A stretch of DNA of 64,000 nt from a virus (lineage: Duplodnaviria; Heunggongvirae; Uroviricota; Caudoviricetes), in the IMG/VR virus record IMGVR_UViG_2724679237_000005, positions 32,001 to 96,000 of that record, one strand, 5' to 3'. The translations under genes and the position numbers were made by a program. This document shows, in pieces, positions 1,735-45,708 of the stretch (position 1 is the stretch's first letter; each line of letters begins with the position of its first letter). The notes below the pieces were generated by a model. The model worked only from the letters and a program-made list of their open reading frames with translations, had not been told where the DNA came from and made no database searches.

Positions 1735-2838
1735 TCACACCGCCACTGGAACCTTGATCCACGGTAGAGGGTCATAGCCAAGAATTAAAACCTCGTCCCA
1801 TTTGAAATCATCCAACTCTGACCATTCATGAGGGAAAATAACGACCGGATCTGAATGCTCTGGAGCCTGTCGTTTCATTAGCTCACACACACCTTCCATG
1901 TGGTTGTTGTACAAATGCACGTCAAAGCCAAAATGCACAAATGCACCGGCCATGTGACCCGTAATCTTCGCGAGAAAATGAGTGAGAATGCCATAGCCAG
2001 CAATATTGAATGGCATACCAACAAAAGTGTCTACGCTACGCTGTACGAGGCAGGAGTTGAGGATGCGTTTGGGGATTCCAAGTTCATCCAGTTCGGCTTC
2101 AGTAACACTGCCGTCCATCTCCAGATCGTATAGCATCTTGGTGTAGATAGACTCGTAACCGAGGCGACTGTGTTGAAGACCAATGTCAGTTGCCATCGTT
2201 AAACGGGTTTCAAAATCCAGCTCACGACTCCACAAAGAGAAGACAAAGTGGCAAGGTGGCAGCTTCATATCCTCAAGCTCGCCTACGTTCCATGCGTTAA
2301 GCATGATGCGACGATCGGTAGGGTTCGTGCGCAGTGTATCGACAATACGCTGTAGCTGATCGATTTCACGGGACAGCACTACGCGATCTTCACAGATACC
2401 CAGGTATCCCTCGACTTTGTACCCGCGTTCACGGAAAGTAGCGATCTTGCTCAGATATTCACTATGGCTCACGATGCGGGTATCTTCCCATCGACGCCAC
2501 TGCTTACCGTAAACCGGCCCCAAATCGCCATTCTCATCGGCCCATGCATCCCAAATCTTAACGCCGTTATCCTTGAGAAATTGGATGTTGCCCGTGCCTT
2601 TCAGATACCACTCAAGTTCGACAAGTAGTGGCTTAAGATTTACCGCCTTTCCAGAAATAAGCGGCACAGTCCCACCAGTAAGCATGTAGTAAGAGGGAAC
2701 GTAGCAGGTGCTTAAAGTACCAGTGCCTGTGCGATCATCAGCCTGCACGCCGCTTTTAAGCACCGTCTCAATAACTTTTGCATACGATGCGTTTGTTACC
2801 TGACCGTTCGTATGCTCACGATTCAAAAGGAGTGACAC
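1735..2838 (-). CDS. thyA: thymidylate synthase
   Basis: DRTGTGT, GPVYGKQWR, DRRIMLNAWN and LPPCH motifs; GTG start with GAGGT RBS. Confidence 0.9.
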   Translation of the reverse strand: MSLLLNREHTNGQVTNASYAKVIETVLKSGVQADDRTGTGTLSTCYVPSYYMLTGGTVPLISGKAVNLKPLLVELEWYLKGTGNIQFLKDNGVKIWDAWADENGDLGPVYGKQWRRWEDTRIVSHSEYLSKIATFRERGYKVEGYLGICEDRVVLSREIDQLQRIVDTLRTNPTDRRIMLNAWNVGELEDMKLPPCHFVFSLWSRELDFETRLTMATDIGLQHSRLGYESIYTKMLYDLEMDGSVTEAELDELGIPKRILNSCLVQRSVDTFVGMPFNIAGYGILTHFLAKITGHMAGAFVHFGFDVHLYNNHMEGVCELMKRQAPEHSDPVVIFPHEWSELDDFKWDEVLILGYDPLPWIKVPVAV

Positions 2839-2853
2839 AATAACCTCACAAAG

Positions 2854-2869
2854 ATAAGTAATTACTTAT
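2854..2869. promoter_or_regulatory. perfect 16-bp palindrome ATAAGTAATTACTTAT upstream of thyA (member of ACTTACTTAT motif family)
   Basis: read directly; 16 nt upstream of thyA start. Confidence 0.5.
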
Positions 2870-2912
2870 TCATTGCGTGAGTTTACATTTATTGAGGGGA
2901 CAAGGCCAGATA

Positions 2913-2945
2913 GATAAAAAAATGGTGGCCATAGGCCACCAAAAA
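2913..2945 (-). terminator. rho-independent terminator after NTP-pyrophosphatase gene
   Basis: 8-bp stem tggtggcc/ggccacca followed by T-run on minus strand. Confidence 0.55.
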
Positions 2946-3009
2946 CGAATAGTTGTTTCAGGAATTTAACGCGCCAACACAATATACATAGATAGATAAC
3001 TACCTACAA

Positions 3010-3879
3010 TTATTTTTTGATCATTCCATACATTGCTGAGGATTTAGCTTGCTCAACAAAGGAGGATAAATCGACATCACTATAGGTTGGAGACTTCAGA
3101 ATCTTTCCATCGGAAATTCGAAAACCGATCATCTTATCGGTGCCATCAGCATGGCGGAATCCCAGATCTGAAGAGTCGTATTTGCAGTTGGCCACAGCCT
3201 GGCGACGTTCCTCGACATCAGCAGGCCATAATTTTGTCATGTTCGACCGATGAATTTCGCCAACCAGCTCGACTACATTGATACCGAGGAAATCAGCCAG
3301 TCGATAGGTCATCATGCACGCCACATAGATTTTGTTCATGACACGGCGCAGTTCCTGAATCAGTTCAGAATCCTTAACAGTCTTGTTCTCAAGTTTATCT
3401 GCCAGCTCTTCGAGCATACATGACGCCTCACGAGCTTCCTGAAATGGCATTGCCATATCATCGAAAACAGTGTTACCGGGCACAAAAATTGTCTGCATAA
3501 AGCGATCAATGCTCTGTTCCTGCGTGTAATAGGTCATGCCGGTAGAAATACCACCTTTGATGGCGACCATCGTACCAACACCAACGTATAAAAAGTCGGC
3601 CATTGCATCCAGCAGTTGCTCAATATCCCCATTCATTGCGGCTGGAATACCTTCCACTACAGCTTCTTCATGAATCAGGCTTGCACGGAGACGAAGCAGC
3701 TCTGGTGTCGGCATAACGCGTCTCGGATGCTGGAAGAGTTCATGAAACTGATCGACCATCTTGTAAATACTTTCAGTAGCTACACCATGACCTTCATGCA
3801 ACTCATATGGTTCTGGCTTAAATCCAATGAGACGATCGGTGGCAAGTTTCAGGTGGTCAGTCAGTTTGGTAAAGTTCAT
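3010..3879 (-). CDS. putative all-alpha NTP pyrophosphohydrolase (MazG or dimeric dUTPase-like)
   Basis: EExxE-type acidic helical motifs (LIHEEAVVEG, MLEELADKLE); start reassigned to internal ATG with AAGGAA RBS because upstream part overlaps nrdB. Confidence 0.4.
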   Translation of the reverse strand: MNFTKLTDHLKLATDRLIGFKPEPYELHEGHGVATESIYKMVDQFHELFQHPRRVMPTPELLRLRASLIHEEAVVEGIPAAMNGDIEQLLDAMADFLYVGVGTMVAIKGGISTGMTYYTQEQSIDRFMQTIFVPGNTVFDDMAMPFQEAREASCMLEELADKLENKTVKDSELIQELRRVMNKIYVACMMTYRLADFLGINVVELVGEIHRSNMTKLWPADVEERRQAVANCKYDSSDLGFRHADGTDKMIGFRISDGKILKSPTYSDVDLSSFVEQAKSSAMYGMIKK

Positions 3880-3956: not shown

Positions 3957-5099
3957 TTACAGGTCTGCAAACTGGCTTAGAGAAGCCTTGTCCACGGTAG
4001 AATCGATCTGACCTACCAGATATGTGCTTTGCTCTGCCTCTTGTGGTGCAATTTGCAGTGTGTCGGTTAACAACCACTTGTTCATCCAGACCAGCGGATC
4101 TGTGGTAACTTCTGGAAATAAAGCCTTCAGGCCAAGACGATTCATAGCCAGATTGGTTCGGTATTTTACATAGGTCTTCAGAATATCCGCGTTTAAACCA
4201 ATCATCGAACCGTCTTTGAAGAGATAGTCTGCCCAGTTCATTTCTTGTTCGGCGACTGATTTCATGGTGTCGTAAATGACGTTTTCTTCATCAGCAGCAA
4301 TCTCTTTCCACAATAAACCTTCGCGACCGGTACGCATGAAGCGGATCATGCGTTCAGTTCCTTCGCAATGCAGAGCTTCATCACGGGCAATAAAGCGCAT
4401 AATTTTGGTGTTACCCTCAAGCAACTTCCGTTCGCCAAAGGCAAACGTACATGCAAAACTTACATAGAAACGGATCGCCTCAAGCGCATTAATGGACACC
4501 AACGTGCGGAAAAGCTGACGGTGCAAAGGGTATGGCTCCCAGCCATATTCATTTACGTACAGACGTTCAAACTCTTTCTCACCTAACGACTGGCGCTCGC
4601 AGGTCATCCCATAAAGCCTGTCATATTCAGCAGAGATACTGATCGCTCGGTTGATGATTTCTTCATCCGTAACAATACCGTCAAAAACAATGCTCGGATC
4701 GTCCACCATGCCACGAATAATGTGGGTGTAGCTGCGGCTATGGATAGTCTCAGAGAAAGACCATGTTTCAACCCACGTTTCCAGTTCAGGAATAGAGATA
4801 AGCGGCAGCAGCGTTGCATTTGGGCTACGTCCCTGAACTGAATCGAGTAACGTTTGATAACGGAGATTGCTCAGAAAAATGTGACGTTCGTGGTCCCGCA
4901 GCTTCGTGTTGAAGTCGATACGATCGCTCGAAATATCAACTTCTTCCGGCCGCCAGAAGAAAGACAATTGACGTTCAATCAACTTTTCAAAATCACGGTA
5001 TTTTTGCTGATCGTAACGTGCCACGTTGACAGATTGTCCGAGGAACATAGGTTCTTTGGTTGCATCATTAGCACCCAAACGGAACGTTGAATATGACAT
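3957..5099 (-). CDS. nrdB: ribonucleotide reductase class Ia small subunit
   Basis: Strong resemblance to enterobacterial NrdB N-terminus ([31 protein letters not shown]); start at ATG 5097-5099 with AAGGA RBS. Confidence 0.9.
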
Positions 5100-8916: not shown

Positions 8917-10822
8917 AGCTGCGCCCCTCTTTAACTTCCAGCGTAATAGTTTCCCGGAACCATGACTTCATCTCTTTATGGGAGATAATCAGCACAGTAC
9001 CTCGCTCGCGAGCTTTGGACTCCAGAATACCCATGAGGCGTTCAAGACCGGCTGTATCGAGTGCATCGTCAATTTCGTCGCCGATAAACAAATCGATGTT
9101 TTTACTCGCCCGGTTACTAACCAGATCCTGCAATGCCAAAGAACACGCAATGCGAACCTTCCGCTTCTCACCACCAGAGAGGGTCTGGAACGACTTACTT
9201 GAACCTTTCTTCTGCACACTAATGTTGAATTTGTCGCGATACTCACCTTTTTTAGTGACATCCATCGTCGACCACTCAGCAGTAATATTCCCGTCAGACA
9301 ACGTATTGAGATACTCGGCTGTGCGTGTATTCAGGAAAGGCGTAACAGACGTCAAAATATGAGAACGCACCCCGGCAGGAGAGTAGACCTGACGAGCTTT
9401 TTCCAATAGCAACGTTTGTTCCTGAATAGCCTTTAACTCGTCTTTTAAGGACTTGAAGGTAGACTTACTGGATGCCAGGTTATCTTCGTGTCTGGCGATA
9501 AGAGCAATAAACGGATTAATCTCTTTTGATATACGATCGACCTCAGTACGAGCACGAGTAACAAGAGACTCAATAGCAACAACCTCCTTCTCACGATGAC
9601 GCAAAGTTGAGAGTTGTTTAGTAAGCTCTTCAATCCGGGCAATGATAGCCGTTACATCAGGTGTCGTTTTAACAAGGGCAGACTCAATGCTTAACGCCTT
9701 CTCAAGATTCGTTTTGTGTTTAGCCATTGCCTCTGCAAGTGTCTTCGCCTGACCAATTTCCTGACGTGCTTGTTCAATGAAACTCTCCTTCACCGTTGAT
9801 AGATCTTCTTCGCAGTAGGCTTTGCCACAAGTAGGGCATGGTGATCCCACTTTAGTACCAACCTCTTCTGCTTTGGTCTTAAAATTACGCGCGCGGTTCA
9901 TTGCATCAGCCTGACTATTTTCTGTAGCTTTGATGCTTGCCCGAATATCAGTTATCGCACCACGCACTTTGAGCAACTTGGCATCATGTTCTTCTTTTGA
10001 GGCTAACTTTTTGCGCTCACTTTCGATTGCCTTCTCGGTATCACGGATCTGTTCGGGAAGAGTGCGGATCTCAAGTTCAACTTCCGTTAACTCAACTTCG
10101 GCACTTGCCAACCCAGCTAGGGCATCGTCATAACGTTTAGAACGCTCTTGCTCCCATGATTCAGAGGAGGCTTTCGCGGACTCAATTTCTGACTGTGTTG
10201 CCTCAATGGTCGAGATTGTCGACTCCAATTTGGTTTTAATCACGTCCATACGTGCGGCAGCTGCGTTAGCTCGTTCACGAGCAATAGCGTAGGCGCGTGT
10301 CAGTCTGTCAACGCCAGCGGCTTCTTCTACGATGGTTTTGAGATTTTTGTCGGACATTCCAGGTAGATCTGGCATAGCTTCTTGGCTTGCATAGATGGAA
10401 GCCATGAAAACTTCTTTAGATGCACCGATCAGACGCTCGACGAACTCCTGCGTCAGCGCATCTTTGCCTTTCGTCATATCGCCATCTTCACCACGAACGA
10501 TAAGACGATTTTTGAACTCTTTGTGTTTACGGTGACGAATGATCGCGTATCTCTTGCCTTCATCCTCGATGGTTACTGCAACACGACAGTTCTTTTCATG
10601 GTCGGTAGACAACACATCGTCACCCTTCACACCATGAGCTGTTTCGCCATAAAGACACCACATCAGGCTATTCATTAGCGTTGACTTTCCAGAGCCATTG
10701 CTTGATGCGGAACTATCATCACTATTAACGCCCTGAATTAGCACTAAACCACGCTGATCTAACTCGACCTCCGCGCTGGCGATAGCCATAAAATTCTCAA
10801 CCTGGAGTTTTAAAAACTTCAT
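8906..10822 (-). CDS. sbcC: SbcC/Rad50-like recombination ATPase
   Basis: N-terminal Walker A GSGKST, long coiled coil with central CPTCG zinc hook, C-terminal signature and Walker B. Confidence 0.8.
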   Translation of the reverse strand: MKFLKLQVENFMAIASAEVELDQRGLVLIQGVNSDDSSASSNGSGKSTLMNSLMWCLYGETAHGVKGDDVLSTDHEKNCRVAVTIEDEGKRYAIIRHRKHKEFKNRLIVRGEDGDMTKGKDALTQEFVERLIGASKEVFMASIYASQEAMPDLPGMSDKNLKTIVEEAAGVDRLTRAYAIARERANAAAARMDVIKTKLESTISTIEATQSEIESAKASSESWEQERSKRYDDALAGLASAEVELTEVELEIRTLPEQIRDTEKAIESERKKLASKEEHDAKLLKVRGAITDIRASIKATENSQADAMNRARNFKTKAEEVGTKVGSPCPTCGKAYCEEDLSTVKESFIEQARQEIGQAKTLAEAMAKHKTNLEKALSIESALVKTTPDVTAIIARIEELTKQLSTLRHREKEVVAIESLVTRARTEVDRISKEINPFIALIARHEDNLASSKSTFKSLKDELKAIQEQTLLLEKARQVYSPAGVRSHILTSVTPFLNTRTAEYLNTLSDGNITAEWSTMDVTKKGEYRDKFNISVQKKGSSKSFQTLSGGEKRKVRIACSLALQDLVSNRASKNIDLFIGDEIDDALDTAGLERLMGILESKARERGTVLIISHKEMKSWFRETITLEVKEGRSYVV

Positions 10823-12391: not shown

Positions 12392-13036
12392 TTACAGCGC
12401 GTCAGTGGGCTTTTTACGCGCTGCGTTTATGCTTATGACGCCAGCTTTTGGACGTGGGTCAACAAGGTTAAGCTCTTCTTCGCTGTGGTATTCGAGGTCG
12501 AACTCACGTTTTACATGTCTGATGTAGATTGCGGTGAGCAGGCTATCTTTGGTCAGAAAGTGTCCGTAGGATTTGCGGATCACTTCTTCTACCTTCTCGA
12601 TTTTCTCACCACCCATACAGAGATGATTAAACCGGCTGTGTTTCCGCAACATTTCGTCTACTGGGCCTGAGTAAACCTTGTCTACTTTCCCAAAACGGAT
12701 GATTTTCCCTGTGTCTGCGGATACGAGGCAAATCAGCTTGTCTGGTGATAAACGATCTCGCCACGTCACACCTGAACGGAGTGTGTTGAAGTAGGGAGCA
12801 TCCAATCCGATGATCGGTTTACGAAATGCGAGTAATGGAACGTACCTGATGCAACTGTTTAAATGAAAATTCACACCAGCCTTATCAAGTTTAATTCTGG
12901 TTTCGTAGATCGGGCACTTCGCCGCTATACCGCAGATGTCACAAAGCAACTTCTGCTTATTCAGGTTGGAATTTGATTCGATAGTGTAGGAGCCGTCTTC
13001 AAGACGACGAACCCAGCGCGTGCGTTTTAGATCCAT
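12392..13036 (-). CDS. hypothetical protein
   Basis: 214-aa ORF with ATG start; no recognised domain. Confidence 0.45.
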   Translation of the reverse strand: MDLKRTRWVRRLEDGSYTIESNSNLNKQKLLCDICGIAAKCPIYETRIKLDKAGVNFHLNSCIRYVPLLAFRKPIIGLDAPYFNTLRSGVTWRDRLSPDKLICLVSADTGKIIRFGKVDKVYSGPVDEMLRKHSRFNHLCMGGEKIEKVEEVIRKSYGHFLTKDSLLTAIYIRHVKREFDLEYHSEEELNLVDPRPKAGVISINAARKKPTDAL

Positions 13037-13235
13037 ATGTCATTTTTCTGTGATTGTTAGCCGAGGCAACGATAACCCACCAGGTGCGCCGAAGGTAGTA
13101 AATGCCTGTTTTAATTATTCACATATCCACAGGATAGATCCTAATAAAGAGATCCATAGATAGATCCTTGTATAGATCAAATAAGATCCCCGATCGCTGT
13201 AAGCCGCTCCACGACTGGTCTGAAGCCATGTTCAT

Positions 13236-13341
13236 GTATGCTGCCAGCGGTAATTGATAGTCTGTCAACGGTTCGCCGTATGCTGCCAACTGTTTTTGGT
13301 ATGCTGCCAGCGGCAAATCAAGTATGCTGTCAGCGGTTGAA
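13236..13341. repeat. upstream iteron set (4 copies of GTATGCTG(C/T)CAGCGG) of replication origin
   Basis: direct repeats at 13236, 13278 (degenerate), 13299, 13323 immediately 5' of repA. Confidence 0.7.
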
Positions 13342-13357
13342 TGACAAAGGTGTCCAC

Positions 13358-14452
13358 ATGTCCACAAAAAATAAAAAAGGTAAAAATAACAAAGAAGTAG
13401 AAGATAATCTCGACAACTTTGAAGAAGGTTCCCTTGAATTGTACACAGGGGAACTTGTCCCTAATAGCAACAATACAGTCCAACCAATTGCGTTGATGCG
13501 GCTGGGGTTGTTCGTGCCCACGCTCAAGGGGACAAAATACAGCAAGCGTAACAAGCCAAATGAGATCGATGCTTCAAAGGAGCTTGTTCAGCTCGAAGTA
13601 GCCCGTTCTGAAGGCTATTCCGATATCAAGATAACCGGTCCTCGTCTCGACATGGATCATGATTTCAAAACGTGGGTGGGCGTTGTGCGTTCGCTGGCAG
13701 AATACGGCGAACCTAACGGTCGTGTCGAGTTAAGCATCACGAAATTTGCGAAGTTTTGTGGCTATCCATCGTCACAGATCCGCAAAACACTCCGCGACCG
13801 GCTTACAAACAGTCTTTTGAAGATCATGCGTACAACTCTGTCTTTCCAGAGAACGTATGAAGAAAAGAACGTCGACGGCTCTAACAAGATCTCGCTTCTG
13901 ATGGTGCACCTCATCAATAGCGTGGACTACAACGAGCAGAAAGATACGGTGGTGTTCTATGCAGAACCGAAGCTGGCCGAACTATATCGCTTTGACCATA
14001 AGGTTCTTTTGCAGTTAAAGGTTATCAATAAGCTACCACGCAAAGAAACAGCACAGGCTCTGTACACCTTCATCGAAAGTCTTCCAACCAAGCCTGCGCC
14101 GGTATCGCTTGCTCGATTGCGTGCGCGACTCAATTTGAGTAGTAGGAATGTCAGCTCGCAGAATCAGACTATACGTAACGGCTTAAAAGCTCTCCAAGAT
14201 TTGGGCTATCTCGAATACAGCGAGATTAAGCGTGGGCGGTCGATCTATATCCAGATTCACAGCCGCAATCCAAAACTCAAAGTCGCACCGCCAAAACCTG
14301 AAGACATCGAACCCAAAAAACCAGATGAGAAAGCTGGGGAAATTGATGCCAAACAGAACATTATCAACAAGATAACCGAACTTTCGCAGAATTTGACGCC
14401 TGAAAATATCAAGATGATTGAGATCCTTTCCAATAGTCTCAAACTGCTTTGA
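13358..14452 (+). CDS. repA: plasmid-type replication initiator (RepA-like, iteron-binding)
   Basis: 364-aa ORF flanked on both sides by iterons; start set at ATG 13358 because ORF-track N-terminus overlaps the iterons. Confidence 0.65.
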   Translation: MSTKNKKGKNNKEVEDNLDNFEEGSLELYTGELVPNSNNTVQPIALMRLGLFVPTLKGTKYSKRNKPNEIDASKELVQLEVARSEGYSDIKITGPRLDMDHDFKTWVGVVRSLAEYGEPNGRVELSITKFAKFCGYPSSQIRKTLRDRLTNSLLKIMRTTLSFQRTYEEKNVDGSNKISLLMVHLINSVDYNEQKDTVVFYAEPKLAELYRFDHKVLLQLKVINKLPRKETAQALYTFIESLPTKPAPVSLARLRARLNLSSRNVSSQNQTIRNGLKALQDLGYLEYSEIKRGRSIYIQIHSRNPKLKVAPPKPEDIEPKKPDEKAGEIDAKQNIINKITELSQNLTPENIKMIEILSNSLKLL

Positions 14453-14985
14453 TATGCTGTCAGCGGTGAAATGTATGCTATCAGCGGCTATTTTTCTGAA
14501 AAGTATGCTGTGAACGGTTAAAGATATGCTACCAGCGGTATAGTGAGATGAACGTATGCTGTGAGCGGTAAATCATCTATCACCACTCAATGCTCTGTCA
14601 TACCTCCCCAGTGGTTACTAACCTCGAAGAGTGCATTCCATATAGGTTTGCGCTCACTAACATTCTATTGCTATTGCGCTGATTGCTTGTAGTGAAAGGC
14701 ATTTATTGCCTGCTGCTCCTGATAGAACGTATGCTGTCAGAGGTGTTTTATTGAGGAATTTTTGTTTGGATATGCTATCAGCGGTAATTAATGGCATATG
14801 TCAGACCTTCGTATGCTGCCAGCGGTAATTTTGTTCTGGTTATACCCATACCGGTACATATTATTCATGCAATGTCTTAAGTATGCTGTCAGCGGTAAAA
14901 AATCGAGTAAAGTATGCTGTGAGCGGTGAGATAGACTCTCGATATGCTATCAGCGGCAGTTGATTGTGTATGCTGTCAGCGGTGA
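14452..14985. repeat. downstream iteron array (about 12 copies of the same 15-bp iteron, irregular spacing)
   Basis: TATGCT(G/A)(T/C)(C/G)AGCGG copies at 14452, 14473, 14503, 14524, 14544, 14728, 14770, 14810, 14880, 14902, 14942, 14967. Confidence 0.75.
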
Positions 14986-15030
14986 CGACTATGAAATATG
15001 ACTGCGGAACGAGCCGCAGTCAGTTTGCAT

Positions 15031-15243
15031 TTAGTGTATTTTCTTCAACAGACCCCAAAGTGTTCCGGCTTTTGTAGTCAGTTTTCCTGTTTCTGGATCG
15101 TACATACGCCATTCACGCCGCTGGTGGACGATATACCCATCTTCACGTTCCAGACGCTCAAGAACGCCAGGCTGCTTGAAACCCTTAGCACGCCAGTATC
15201 CGCTTGTTTTCTCGATTTCCAGACCTGCTAGTGTTAATGCCAT
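15031..15243 (-). CDS. hypothetical protein
   Basis: 70-aa ORF. Confidence 0.35.
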   Translation of the reverse strand: MALTLAGLEIEKTSGYWRAKGFKQPGVLERLEREDGYIVHQRREWRMYDPETGKLTTKAGTLWGLLKKIH

Positions 15244-15578
15244 TATCCAACCTCCTTGCAGTCATCGAAAAGGTAGCTTTGCTGAGAAGCGTGAACGCCA
15301 TAGAAGCCCTTGTATTTGTTGTATACGAAGTGATCTTCTCCGACGCCGGTTAATTTGCCATTACGGTTTGTGAGATATGGGGATGACAATACTCGATCGT
15401 CACGCACAACATAGAACTGGTCGCCGCTGTCTACGACCATCGCGCCATATGGTGCTTTTATGACGTCGGTAAGAGCGCCATTCTTAACGTCGGCTACAGA
15501 CATTTCACACTGATAAACAGTGGTGTCGGCCACAACGATCGAAGAAAGGAACAACAGCGCGAATGGGATGGCCTTCAT
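15243..15578 (-). CDS. secreted hypothetical protein
   Basis: N-terminal signal-peptide-like segment MKAIPFALLFLSSIVVA. Confidence 0.5.
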   Translation of the reverse strand: MKAIPFALLFLSSIVVADTTVYQCEMSVADVKNGALTDVIKAPYGAMVVDSGDQFYVVRDDRVLSSPYLTNRNGKLTGVGEDHFVYNKYKGFYGVHASQQSYLFDDCKEVG

Positions 15579-44645: not shown

Positions 44646-44683
44646 TGCATTGGCGCAATGTACGCGCCAATGCATGATTTTTA
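44646..44683 (+). terminator. rho-independent terminator after GIY-YIG gene
   Basis: 12-bp perfect stem atgcattggcgc/gcgccaatgcat, 7-nt loop, T-run. Confidence 0.55.
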
Positions 44684-45040
44684 ACCTTTCTTCATCAACT
44701 CTCGTTTGATTTCATCGGTACGCATCGTGACATCGGCAGCGGTGATCGCCTCATTCAATTTCACGATGTCCTCGATTTCCTGCGGTGACTTCTCTGCCAG
44801 ATGGAAAATGGCTGCTCGAATCACGTCAGAACGAGTGAACTTCTCGAAGCGAGGGATGAACTTCATCATCTCCAGCAGTTCGAAGTATTCGTCCTCCAGT
44901 GACATTGTGCGGCTTTTAATTTTCTCTTTGCCACGAGTCGGGCGTCCCTGTGGTCTGACTGGTTGGCGCAAAGGAGTTGTGTTCTTAGCCGGTGCATCAG
45001 GCTCTTTGCGCTTTGCTAGGTCACCCATTTTCATGGACAT
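44681..45040 (-). CDS. ParG-like partition protein (putative ribbon-helix-helix)
   Basis: small basic protein immediately downstream of parA-like gene, start overlaps its stop. Confidence 0.45.
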   Translation of the reverse strand: MSMKMGDLAKRKEPDAPAKNTTPLRQPVRPQGRPTRGKEKIKSRTMSLEDEYFELLEMMKFIPRFEKFTRSDVIRAAIFHLAEKSPQEIEDIVKLNEAITAADVTMRTDEIKRELMKKG

Positions 45041-45708
45041 TATTCTTCTTCCTCCAGACTCAACAGATAATCTACAAATTCTTCAAACTCGGCTTCCGCC
45101 TTTTTGTCGCGCTCGCTACCGGTCATTTCAAAGATAGAACGACCAGACTCTTCCGCATCATCATAGACGTTGCGGTTATATAGATTGACTGGCGCAGACT
45201 CGATTCCAAACGTCTCAACAATCTCTTTAGCCGCCAGAATGCGAGACACTTGTGATGGCAAAGCCGGGCACTGGTTCATGACCGCGCGGACCTTCACTTT
45301 ATCGTTTACATTGCGAACATTGTCGATAATAGGATCGATGTCACGTAAAGATTTCAAATCACGACGCTTAGGACGCAGCGGGATAATGATAACGTCAGCC
45401 ATCAGCATCGCTTGTCGCTGAATTTCGGAGTCAAAGCCACCAGCATCTACCACTACATACTCAGCTCTACCCTGAAGCGATTTTAGGTGCTTAATGATGT
45501 CATCCTGAACGTATGCAAAAGGAATCAGCTCAAGGTCTTCGTTCTGTCGACGGTCTTCACACCAGCTCGTTGTCGTGCGCTGAATATCTATATCGGTGAT
45601 ATAAACCTTCTTCTTCTTTTTGACTTTCAGGCAAACGGCAATTTGCTGGGCAACGGTGGATTTGCCAGGCCCGCCCTTTGTGCCGCCAACCACAAAGATC
45701 TTGGTCAT
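45040..45708 (-). CDS. parA: ParA/ParF-type partition ATPase
   Basis: deviant Walker A GGTKGGPGKST, short type Ib form. Confidence 0.8.
   Translation of the reverse strand: MTKIFVVGGTKGGPGKSTVAQQIAVCLKVKKKKKVYITDIDIQRTTTSWCEDRRQNEDLELIPFAYVQDDIIKHLKSLQGRAEYVVVDAGGFDSEIQRQAMLMADVIIIPLRPKRRDLKSLRDIDPIIDNVRNVNDKVKVRAVMNQCPALPSQVSRILAAKEIVETFGIESAPVNLYNRNVYDDAEESGRSIFEMTGSERDKKAEAEFEEFVDYLLSLEEEE

Follow-up and report, generated by a model that had tools for sequence, protein, structure and literature searches.

The DNA analysed here is a stretch of 64,000 nucleotides (the window) of a tailed-phage genome, positions 32,001 to 96,000 of IMG/VR record IMGVR_UViG_2724679237_000005. At positions 13115-15022 of the window it carries repA, a gene for a replication initiator, bracketed by arrays of a repeated iteron. 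We regard this module, with a probability of about 0.9, as the functional P1/RepFIB-type replicon of a phage-plasmid of the SSU5 supergroup in its plasmid (lysogenic) state. Judged by homology, from which its function is assigned, the module is the counterpart of P1 oriR-repA-incA and of the IncFIB replicon. It is well formed and well preserved, yet essentially ordinary and of a kind already known; the all-direct, bipartite control array and a conserved box pair are all that the known model leaves unexplained. Our literature search found no experimental study of this particular replicon.

The preliminary description of this stretch had proposed a P1-like replicon, and homology beyond the layout bore this out, as RepA shares 46% identity with P1 RepA and the origin is colinear with P1 oriR. 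Because RepA is about equally far from the RepA proteins of P1, SSU5 (48% identity) and classical IncFIB plasmids (~50%), "P1/RepFIB family" would be the more exact label. The features of the module are collected in Table 1.

Table 1. Features of the replicon module, from left to right (window coordinates).
Feature	Position	Strand	Basis or remark
Two tandem DnaA boxes, TTATTCACA and ATATCCACA, at the outer origin edge	13115..13131	+	0 and 1 mismatch to TTWTNCACA
AT-rich stretch with six GATC (Dam) sites in (T/A)AGATCC-type repeats	13133..13196	+	Aligns with annotated P1 oriR Dam sites
GC-rich spacer between GATC region and iterons	13197..13235	+	GC 54%
Origin iteron array, five direct copies (13236, 13257 degenerate, 13278, 13299, 13322)	13236..13341	+	Spacing 21/21/21/23 bp
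Tandem TGTCCACA TGTCCACA, weak DnaA-box-like	13350..13366	+	2 mismatches each; read from sequence
repA, 364-aa initiator (Rep_3 WH1 domain; P1 RepA/RepFIB family)	13358..14452	+	Pfam, PHROG, BLASTP
Control block 1, five direct copies from the stop codon	14452..14573	+	Spacing 21/30/21/30 bp
Iteron-free spacer (~155 bp) between control blocks, with box pair	14574..14728	+	Comparison of relatives
Box 1, CCCCAGTGGTTACTAACC, near-palindrome GGTTA-C-TAACC at 14612-14622	14605-14622	+	Conserved
Box 2, GGTTTGCGCTCACTAAC, degenerate	14644-14660	+	39 bp from box 1
Control block 2, seven direct copies	14729..14987	+	Spacing 41/41/70/31/30/26 bp
GC-rich hairpin, 9 pairs, two-way terminator-like	14999..15022	.	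Found also as inverted repeat

Iterons on both sides of repA

The 14-nt iteron core TATGCTGYCAGCGG, searched with up to two mismatches, matched 17 times in the window against 0.91 matches expected from shuffled sequences, and 17 matches were reached in none of 100 shuffles. Sixteen of these matches lay on the plus strand and flanked one open reading frame (ORF), with four upstream (core starts 13237, 13279, 13300 and 13323) and 12 downstream (14453, 14474, 14504, 14525 and 14555, followed by 14730, 14771, 14812, 14882, 14913, 14943 and 14969). The same 16 copies emerged from an independent repeat search as a single family of 20-nt units. According to the column profile, the conserved unit extends from the base preceding the core through the T directly following it, and the four positions beyond it show a weak A/T bias. 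In a complete 114-kb relative the iteron was confined to the replicon module, with zero copies elsewhere. Thus the same iteron does stand on both sides of repA, as first described, and the "about twelve" downstream copies are exactly 12, in two blocks of five and seven.

The four upstream iterons first counted are the clear copies, but this count missed a degenerate one at 13258 (TAGTCTGTCAACGG, three mismatches), which sits in the 42-bp gap between clear copies 1 and 2. The same slot has two mismatches in plasmid p09EL50 and Escherichia phage PhiR41_1 and is perfect in the Klebsiella relatives. As the slot is degenerate here and better kept in relatives, the origin array therefore comprises five iterons. 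In the alignment these five are in register with the P1 incC iterons, and the array appears to be the equivalent of P1 incC and of the upstream FIB origin iteron block. The same five-slot layout was found in P1 and Cronobacter JK004 (21/21/21/22 bp) and in Klebsiella pJN2-26 (21/21/21/23 bp, as in the window).

The iteron core contains the palindrome GCTGNCAGC. We also considered that the window iteron might be an inverted SSU5 iteron, its reverse complement ATTACCGCTG resembling ATAACCGCTG. This idea was rejected as over-reading because of that palindrome and because the same-orientation alignment with P1 (GTRTGCTG) suits colinear origins.

The 17th core match is an inverted iteron-like site within repA (13691-13704, minus strand, two mismatches), and 13695-13713 is complementary (95% over 19 nt) to 13270-13288, which comprises iteron 2 and its 5' flank. 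The site was seen in the near-identical E. coli class only and was absent at 79-93% RepA identity, where the peptide SLAEYGE is retained with different codons. Since relatives did not keep it despite the identical peptide, it is probably a chance or recent occurrence.

The origin region

For comparison we used the annotated classical P1 reference K02380, which marks the DnaA site, four Dam sites, five incC repeats, the repA promoter and incA. Window positions 13095-13365 aligned feature by feature with this reference and with the Klebsiella, Cronobacter and SSU5 counterparts, and the ~250 bp upstream of repA were colinear with P1 oriR at the nucleotide level. The tandem DnaA boxes at the outer edge align with the annotated DnaA-binding site of P1 oriR (K02380 729-746). 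The six GATC sites next to them (13137, 13151, 13163, 13175, 13185 and 13192) form the densest GATC cluster of the window, in which no second 75-bp span holds six, and the GC content of the stretch is 35% against 46% for the window. It is presumed to be the unwinding element and the target of methylation and SeqA. The following spacer, GATCGCTGTAAGCCGCTCCACGACTGG, aligns with P1 GATCGTTGCAGGCCGCGCCACGTCTGG. Hence a replicon starting at 13236, as first delimited, does include the iterons and repA, but it truncates ~125 bp of the origin, because the DnaA boxes and the GATC/AT-rich region lie at 13115-13196.

Conservation was measured among 22 distinct close relatives. Only one of 91 positions of the DnaA/GATC region was variable, compared with 12% of repA third codon positions (p=0.0006), and iteron-core positions were variable at 5.5% against the same 12% (p=0.007).

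The weak tandem TGTCCACA extends over both the ribosome-binding region and the repA ATG. At the same place the alignment places TATCCACA-type boxes in P1, JK004, SSU5 and Klebsiella, the Klebsiella copy being GTATCCACA with one mismatch. Because relatives carry these better boxes there, DnaA might bind at the repA translation start. The consensus for integration host factor (IHF), WATCAANNNNTTR, was absent from 13000-15100. An Rfam scan of 12900-15300 with E values up to 1 returned zero RNA families and therefore lends no support to an antisense or control RNA.

A phage N-6-adenine methyltransferase gene lies at 4052-4645 of NZ_CP010144.1, ~16 kb upstream of repA and just beyond what corresponds to the left end of the window, and likewise in relatives. 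If this enzyme acts on GATC, methylation of the origin could be independent of host Dam.

The initiator RepA

RepA matched Pfam Rep3_N (E=3.9e-9; 37.5 bits, cut-off 22.4) and PHROG 775 (E=5e-133), and its BLASTP alignment with P1 RepA covered 278 residues (E=4e-86). By homology, it is thus classed as an iteron-binding initiator. Among phages, tblastn retrieved the repA genes of P1, P7, SSU5 and Cronobacter JK004; among plasmids it retrieved at least 5000 records at ~50% identity, the matches listed being mostly annotated as RepB-family or RepFIB initiators. RepA and its neighbours had no match in NCBIfam, and phmmer found no match for RepA among Protein Data Bank (PDB) sequences. Among the 22 close relatives, 0.5% of repA codon positions 1 and 2 were variable against 12% of position 3, which indicates purifying selection.

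The start codon needed attention. The ORF finder returned a frame of 404 aa from the ATG at 13238, within iteron 1, and both PGAP in relatives and the GenBank annotation of pJN2-26 also start at the iteron-1 ATG (404-405 aa). Such over-extended annotations are found at 6239-7453 of the relative locus L001, 19881-21095 of NZ_CP010144.1 and 2381-3598 of pJN2-26 (coordinates of the respective loci). This frame is open because iterons 21 bp apart translate without stops, and in it the origin iterons appear as "MLPA..." repeats. The repA start is most likely ATG 13358 rather than 13238, being favoured by the N-terminal alignment with P1 RepA, by an upstream AAAGGTG and by the GenBank annotation of PhiR41_1.

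The protein ends in a 55-residue tail composed of a proline- and charge-rich linker followed by two predicted helices. In the protein alignment this tail is common to the Klebsiella and SSU5 RepA proteins and is missing from those of P1 and JK004. The RepA proteins of distant relatives are 341-365 aa long, and these lengths suggest that the tail is the rule among RepFIB-like proteins.

The downstream control array

The downstream array begins directly at the repA stop codon, where P1 also has an iteron, and all 12 of its iterons are direct (plus strand). The array has a GC content of 43%, and DnaA boxes with zero mismatches, a GATC cluster and an AT-rich stretch are all absent from it. The terminal hairpin closes the replicon against the convergent gene at 15031-15243 (minus strand). 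In PhiR41_1, 87 bp are missing between two identical iterons (PhiR41_1 locus ~4061-4075 versus window 14882-14982), leaving 9 control copies against 12; the array thus gains or loses copies when iterons recombine or slip.

The short ORFs of 40-46 aa within the array result from reading iterons as codons and are not genes. A "hypothetical protein" of 39-43 aa annotated in PhiR41_1 (3977-4093; window 14798-14929) falls within control block 2, and its ORF is almost certainly of the same nature.

For P1, the origin role of incC and the copy-control role of incA are experimentally established. The corresponding roles of the iteron arrays were also demonstrated experimentally for RepFIB (PMC11983097). 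From homology with these two systems, we infer that the upstream array of the window serves as the origin and the downstream array as the copy-control element.

The box pair in the spacer

Between the two control blocks, the spacer carries two AGTGGTYACTAAC-type boxes. These boxes were near-invariant in most sub-lineages, whose spacer flanks resist alignment, and over the sampled ranges of the close relatives variation was seen at 0 of 35 box positions and at 16 of the 125 remaining spacer positions (p=0.024). A 15-mer of box 1 finds no second close match in the window, where the 11-nt near-palindrome of this box recurs once, at 9111-9121. The boxes also occur in the replicons of SSU5, Yersinia pestis pMT1, Kluyvera and Rahnella, where direct control iterons give way to inverted ones, and these replicons use another iteron than the window. 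Read on the opposite strand, the box core equals the 5' half of the SSU5-type iteron (TAACCACT). The pair is dispensable, because it is absent from P1, JK004 and three relatives of the window's own clade.

Sites for Tus (Ter), SlmA, XerCD (dif) and DnaA were compared with the boxes by eye and gave partial matches that were unconvincing. The pair may be the slowly decaying relic of an SSU5-type array; that it is instead a distinct regulatory site seems rather unlikely. In that case RepA might recognise the boxes as a "half-iteron" without initiating replication, possibly as a dimer or via its C-terminal tail, much as with the 39-mers of Vibrio cholerae chromosome II or the half-iteron operators of F and pSC101. 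Alternatively, they could bind a host factor. A distinct site of this sort, combined with control iterons that are all direct, would mean that the clade limits its copy number by a variant of the iteron scheme in which a second type of site takes part.

The host element and its relatives

The 2.1-kb module was found at 95% identity or more and at least 80% coverage in ~120 plasmids of E. coli, E. albertii and Shigella, including p09EL50 of O104:H4; the phage matches were PhiR41_1 and two CMS-2020a records. Complete relatives are circular, of ~110 kb, and encode siphovirus structural genes, nrdAB, dnaE, a DnaB-like helicase, a primase and a ligase. Each has one annotated Rep gene and a single replicon type, rep_cluster_488, which is also the MOB-suite type of the plasmids 99-100% identical across the whole module. 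p09EL50 has been described as an IncF plasmid resembling pLF82, pHCM2 and pMT1 (PMC3486847). On sequence grounds the element is assigned to the SSU5 supergroup of phage-plasmids (PMC7969092; 10.1101/2025.09.12.675607).

We compared 75 IMG/VR loci with 78-100% RepA identity, 70 of which had complete flanks. All 70 kept the five-slot frame upstream, with 3-5 copies at up to two mismatches, and all carried 8-12 direct copies downstream in two blocks. The exception to the all-direct arrangement was one reverse-strand match ~500 bp past the array in 3 of the 70 loci. A more distant set (80 loci; 49-58% RepA identity, plus one at 83%), analysed by a rough de novo repeat search, also showed upstream arrays phased at 21 bp, and its downstream arrays mostly opened with 1-3 direct copies and continued with many in inverted orientation, an arrangement like that of P1. 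The all-direct control array is thus a feature of the window's clade.

De novo repeat finding was further carried out in four related loci (Klebsiella, P1, JK004 and SSU5) beside the window. Each locus had five upstream copies at ~21 bp and a downstream array, and three iteron specificities emerged, namely TATGCTGYCAGCGG in the window and Klebsiella, TGTGYGCTGGAGGG in P1 and JK004, and AACCACTGTAGAGAG in SSU5. The repeat changes with the initiator clade, which is the best sequence-level evidence that RepA binds it.

A ParA-type ATPase of 222 aa (AAA_31, MipZ and CbiA matches; 45040-45708, minus strand) is the only one in the window. Together with a 119-aa partner gene it spans 44681-45708 (minus strand), ~30 kb from the replicon, and the two likely form a partition system.

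Comparison with known replicons

The likeness to P1 extends over the whole module. In both, the alignable origin runs from DnaA boxes through GATC heptamers, a GC-rich spacer and five iterons to boxes before repA, the control array starts at the stop codon, and the replicon is one for prophage-plasmid maintenance. The differences concern the iteron, the arrays and the surroundings. The window iteron TATGCTGYCAGCGG shares the 5' half GTRTGCTG with P1 TGTGTGCTGGAGGG but has a different 3' half and two extra bases. The 12 control iterons are direct and in two blocks, whereas P1 incA has 9 (three direct and six inverted). RepA is longer than P1 RepA by 12 N-terminal and 55 C-terminal residues, the par genes lie ~30 kb off and not immediately downstream like P1 parAB-parS, and the AGTGGTYAC box has no counterpart in P1. 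Hence the module would be P1-like in its working, and its sequence places it outside the P1 incompatibility type (IncY).

RepFIB/IncFIB replicons (P307, F, pO157) share the order of upstream origin iterons, rep and downstream control iterons, together with a DnaA site, and a handcuffing model has been put forward for them (PMC11983097). Their RepA proteins are typically ~340-365 aa long with a C-terminal tail. The iteron sequence is different, the downstream iterons are mainly inverted in most of the distant relatives, and the host here is a siphovirus-type phage-plasmid and not a conjugative F-like plasmid.

The Klebsiella pKPHS1/pKpn group ("IncpKPHS1") is closer, with the same iteron core, 85-87% RepA identity, five origin iterons at the window's spacing and a bipartite, all-direct control array. 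It differs in having 8-9 control iterons, a spacer of ~73 bp and a box pair past the second block instead of between the blocks. IncpKPHS1 was reported to carry four iterons in the interval 48-218 bp past repA and to encode a RepA lacking any known domain (PMC6735626). In our analysis the group has five upstream and 8-9 downstream iterons, and Rep3_N was found in the window's 85%-identical homologue. In the GenBank record of pJN2-26 (MZ779062), the two 20-bp iterons flanking repA at locus positions 2378-2397 and 3648-3667 are labelled attR and attL; these labels are most likely an artefact of a prophage tool based on direct repeats.

With SSU5, pHCM2 and pMT1 the window shares the phage-plasmid backbone, local synteny and origin iterons 21 bp apart, and with SSU5 also the C-terminal RepA tail and an AGTGGTYAC box pair inside the control array. 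SSU5 differs in its iteron (AACCACTGTAGAGAG), in a control array that is direct and then inverted, and in a duplicated origin module. Upstream of repA, SSU5 has two origin-like modules in tandem (locus positions 1750-2000 and 2120-2400), and both contain DnaA-like boxes, a GATC region and a set of five iterons. The GATCC repeats of the distal module are intact, while several in the repA-proximal one are decayed (GAACC, GACCC).

Proposed mechanism and alternative explanations

The following scheme is modelled on the P1 literature and on RepFIB and mini-F (PMC11983097). Host DnaA on the outer boxes and RepA monomers on the five origin iterons would open the AT-rich GATC region, and the Dam methylation state together with sequestration would gate re-initiation. 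As the repA promoter would lie among the iterons, iteron-bound RepA would repress its own gene. The 12 downstream iterons would bind RepA, pair with the origin iterons in cis and in trans ("handcuffing") and titrate RepA, which would hold the copy number at about one per chromosome and set incompatibility. With FIB replicons, the downstream block of iterons was sufficient by itself for plasmid displacement, and the upstream block was not (PMC11983097). Because its iteron differs from those of both P1 and SSU5, the replicon is predicted to be compatible with either.

Several findings count against this reading or lend it no support. A consensus scan for sigma-70 promoters on the plus strand upstream of repA, requiring 9 of 12 matches, found no promoter, and the hexamers located where P1 has its promoter are weak; the repA promoter is placed solely by its position relative to P1. 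The single-sequence AlphaFold2 model of RepA was unusable (mean predicted local distance difference test score, pLDDT, 39; predicted template modelling score, pTM, 0.26), so that the Pfam WH1 match is the one support for the Rep_3 fold of two winged-helix domains (WH1-WH2) known from RepE, pi and pPS10 RepA. Furthermore, the control array is broken by a conserved non-iteron element, and the pairing geometry may differ from that of P1 because the control iterons are all direct, unlike those of P1 and most distant relatives.

The downstream array itself might be read otherwise. Long and bipartite as it is, in a group where SSU5 shows that origin modules can be duplicated, it might serve as an additional or alternative origin, or as a store of RepA that favours initiation, and not mainly as a negative controller. 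We hold this to be very unlikely. The array lacks perfect DnaA boxes, a GATC cluster and an AT-rich stretch; its location next to the stop codon corresponds to that of P1 incA and of the downstream iterons in FIB, which are experimentally inhibitory; and its copy number varies from 8 to 12, with PhiR41_1 lacking three, as expected of a dosage element and not of an origin. Arrays of about a dozen direct repeats are also typical of centromeres, for example F sopC, and the repeats might accordingly be a partition centromere or an array for a protein other than RepA. This reading is the most remote of those weighed here, as the downstream repeats have the same sequence as the origin iterons and change together with the RepA clade, and as the sole ParA-type ATPase of the window is ~30 kb distant, the replicon itself being flanked by small convergent ORFs.

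A further alternative concerns the module as a whole, which could be an inactive relic in a phage-plasmid kept by another replicon. The element does encode its own DnaB-like helicase, primase, DnaE and ligase, and F carries a crippled FIB replicon (PMC11983097). Against this stand the purifying selection on repA, the conservation of the DnaA/GATC region and of the iterons, the lack of a second annotated plasmid Rep gene in complete relatives, and the presence of the intact module in ~120 circular plasmids and an isolated phage. A relic thus has slightly less in its favour than a second origin, and we retain the reading of the module as a functional replicon with a downstream control array.

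Significance

The value of these results is practical and introduces no new concept: they give a coordinate-level anatomy of the replicon that maintains common phage-plasmids of E. coli, Shigella and Klebsiella, some of them with resistance genes. They also correct existing annotations, namely the over-extended repA start, the iterons labelled attL and attR, and the "four downstream iterons" and "no known domain" of the Klebsiella group. Like the curing cassettes built for FIB, the downstream array is predicted to cure these elements when supplied without repA. The P1/RepFIB-type replicons of phage-plasmids display at least three iteron specificities on one conserved scaffold, and such diversified specificity would explain how P1-like and different SSU5-like elements coexist in one cell.

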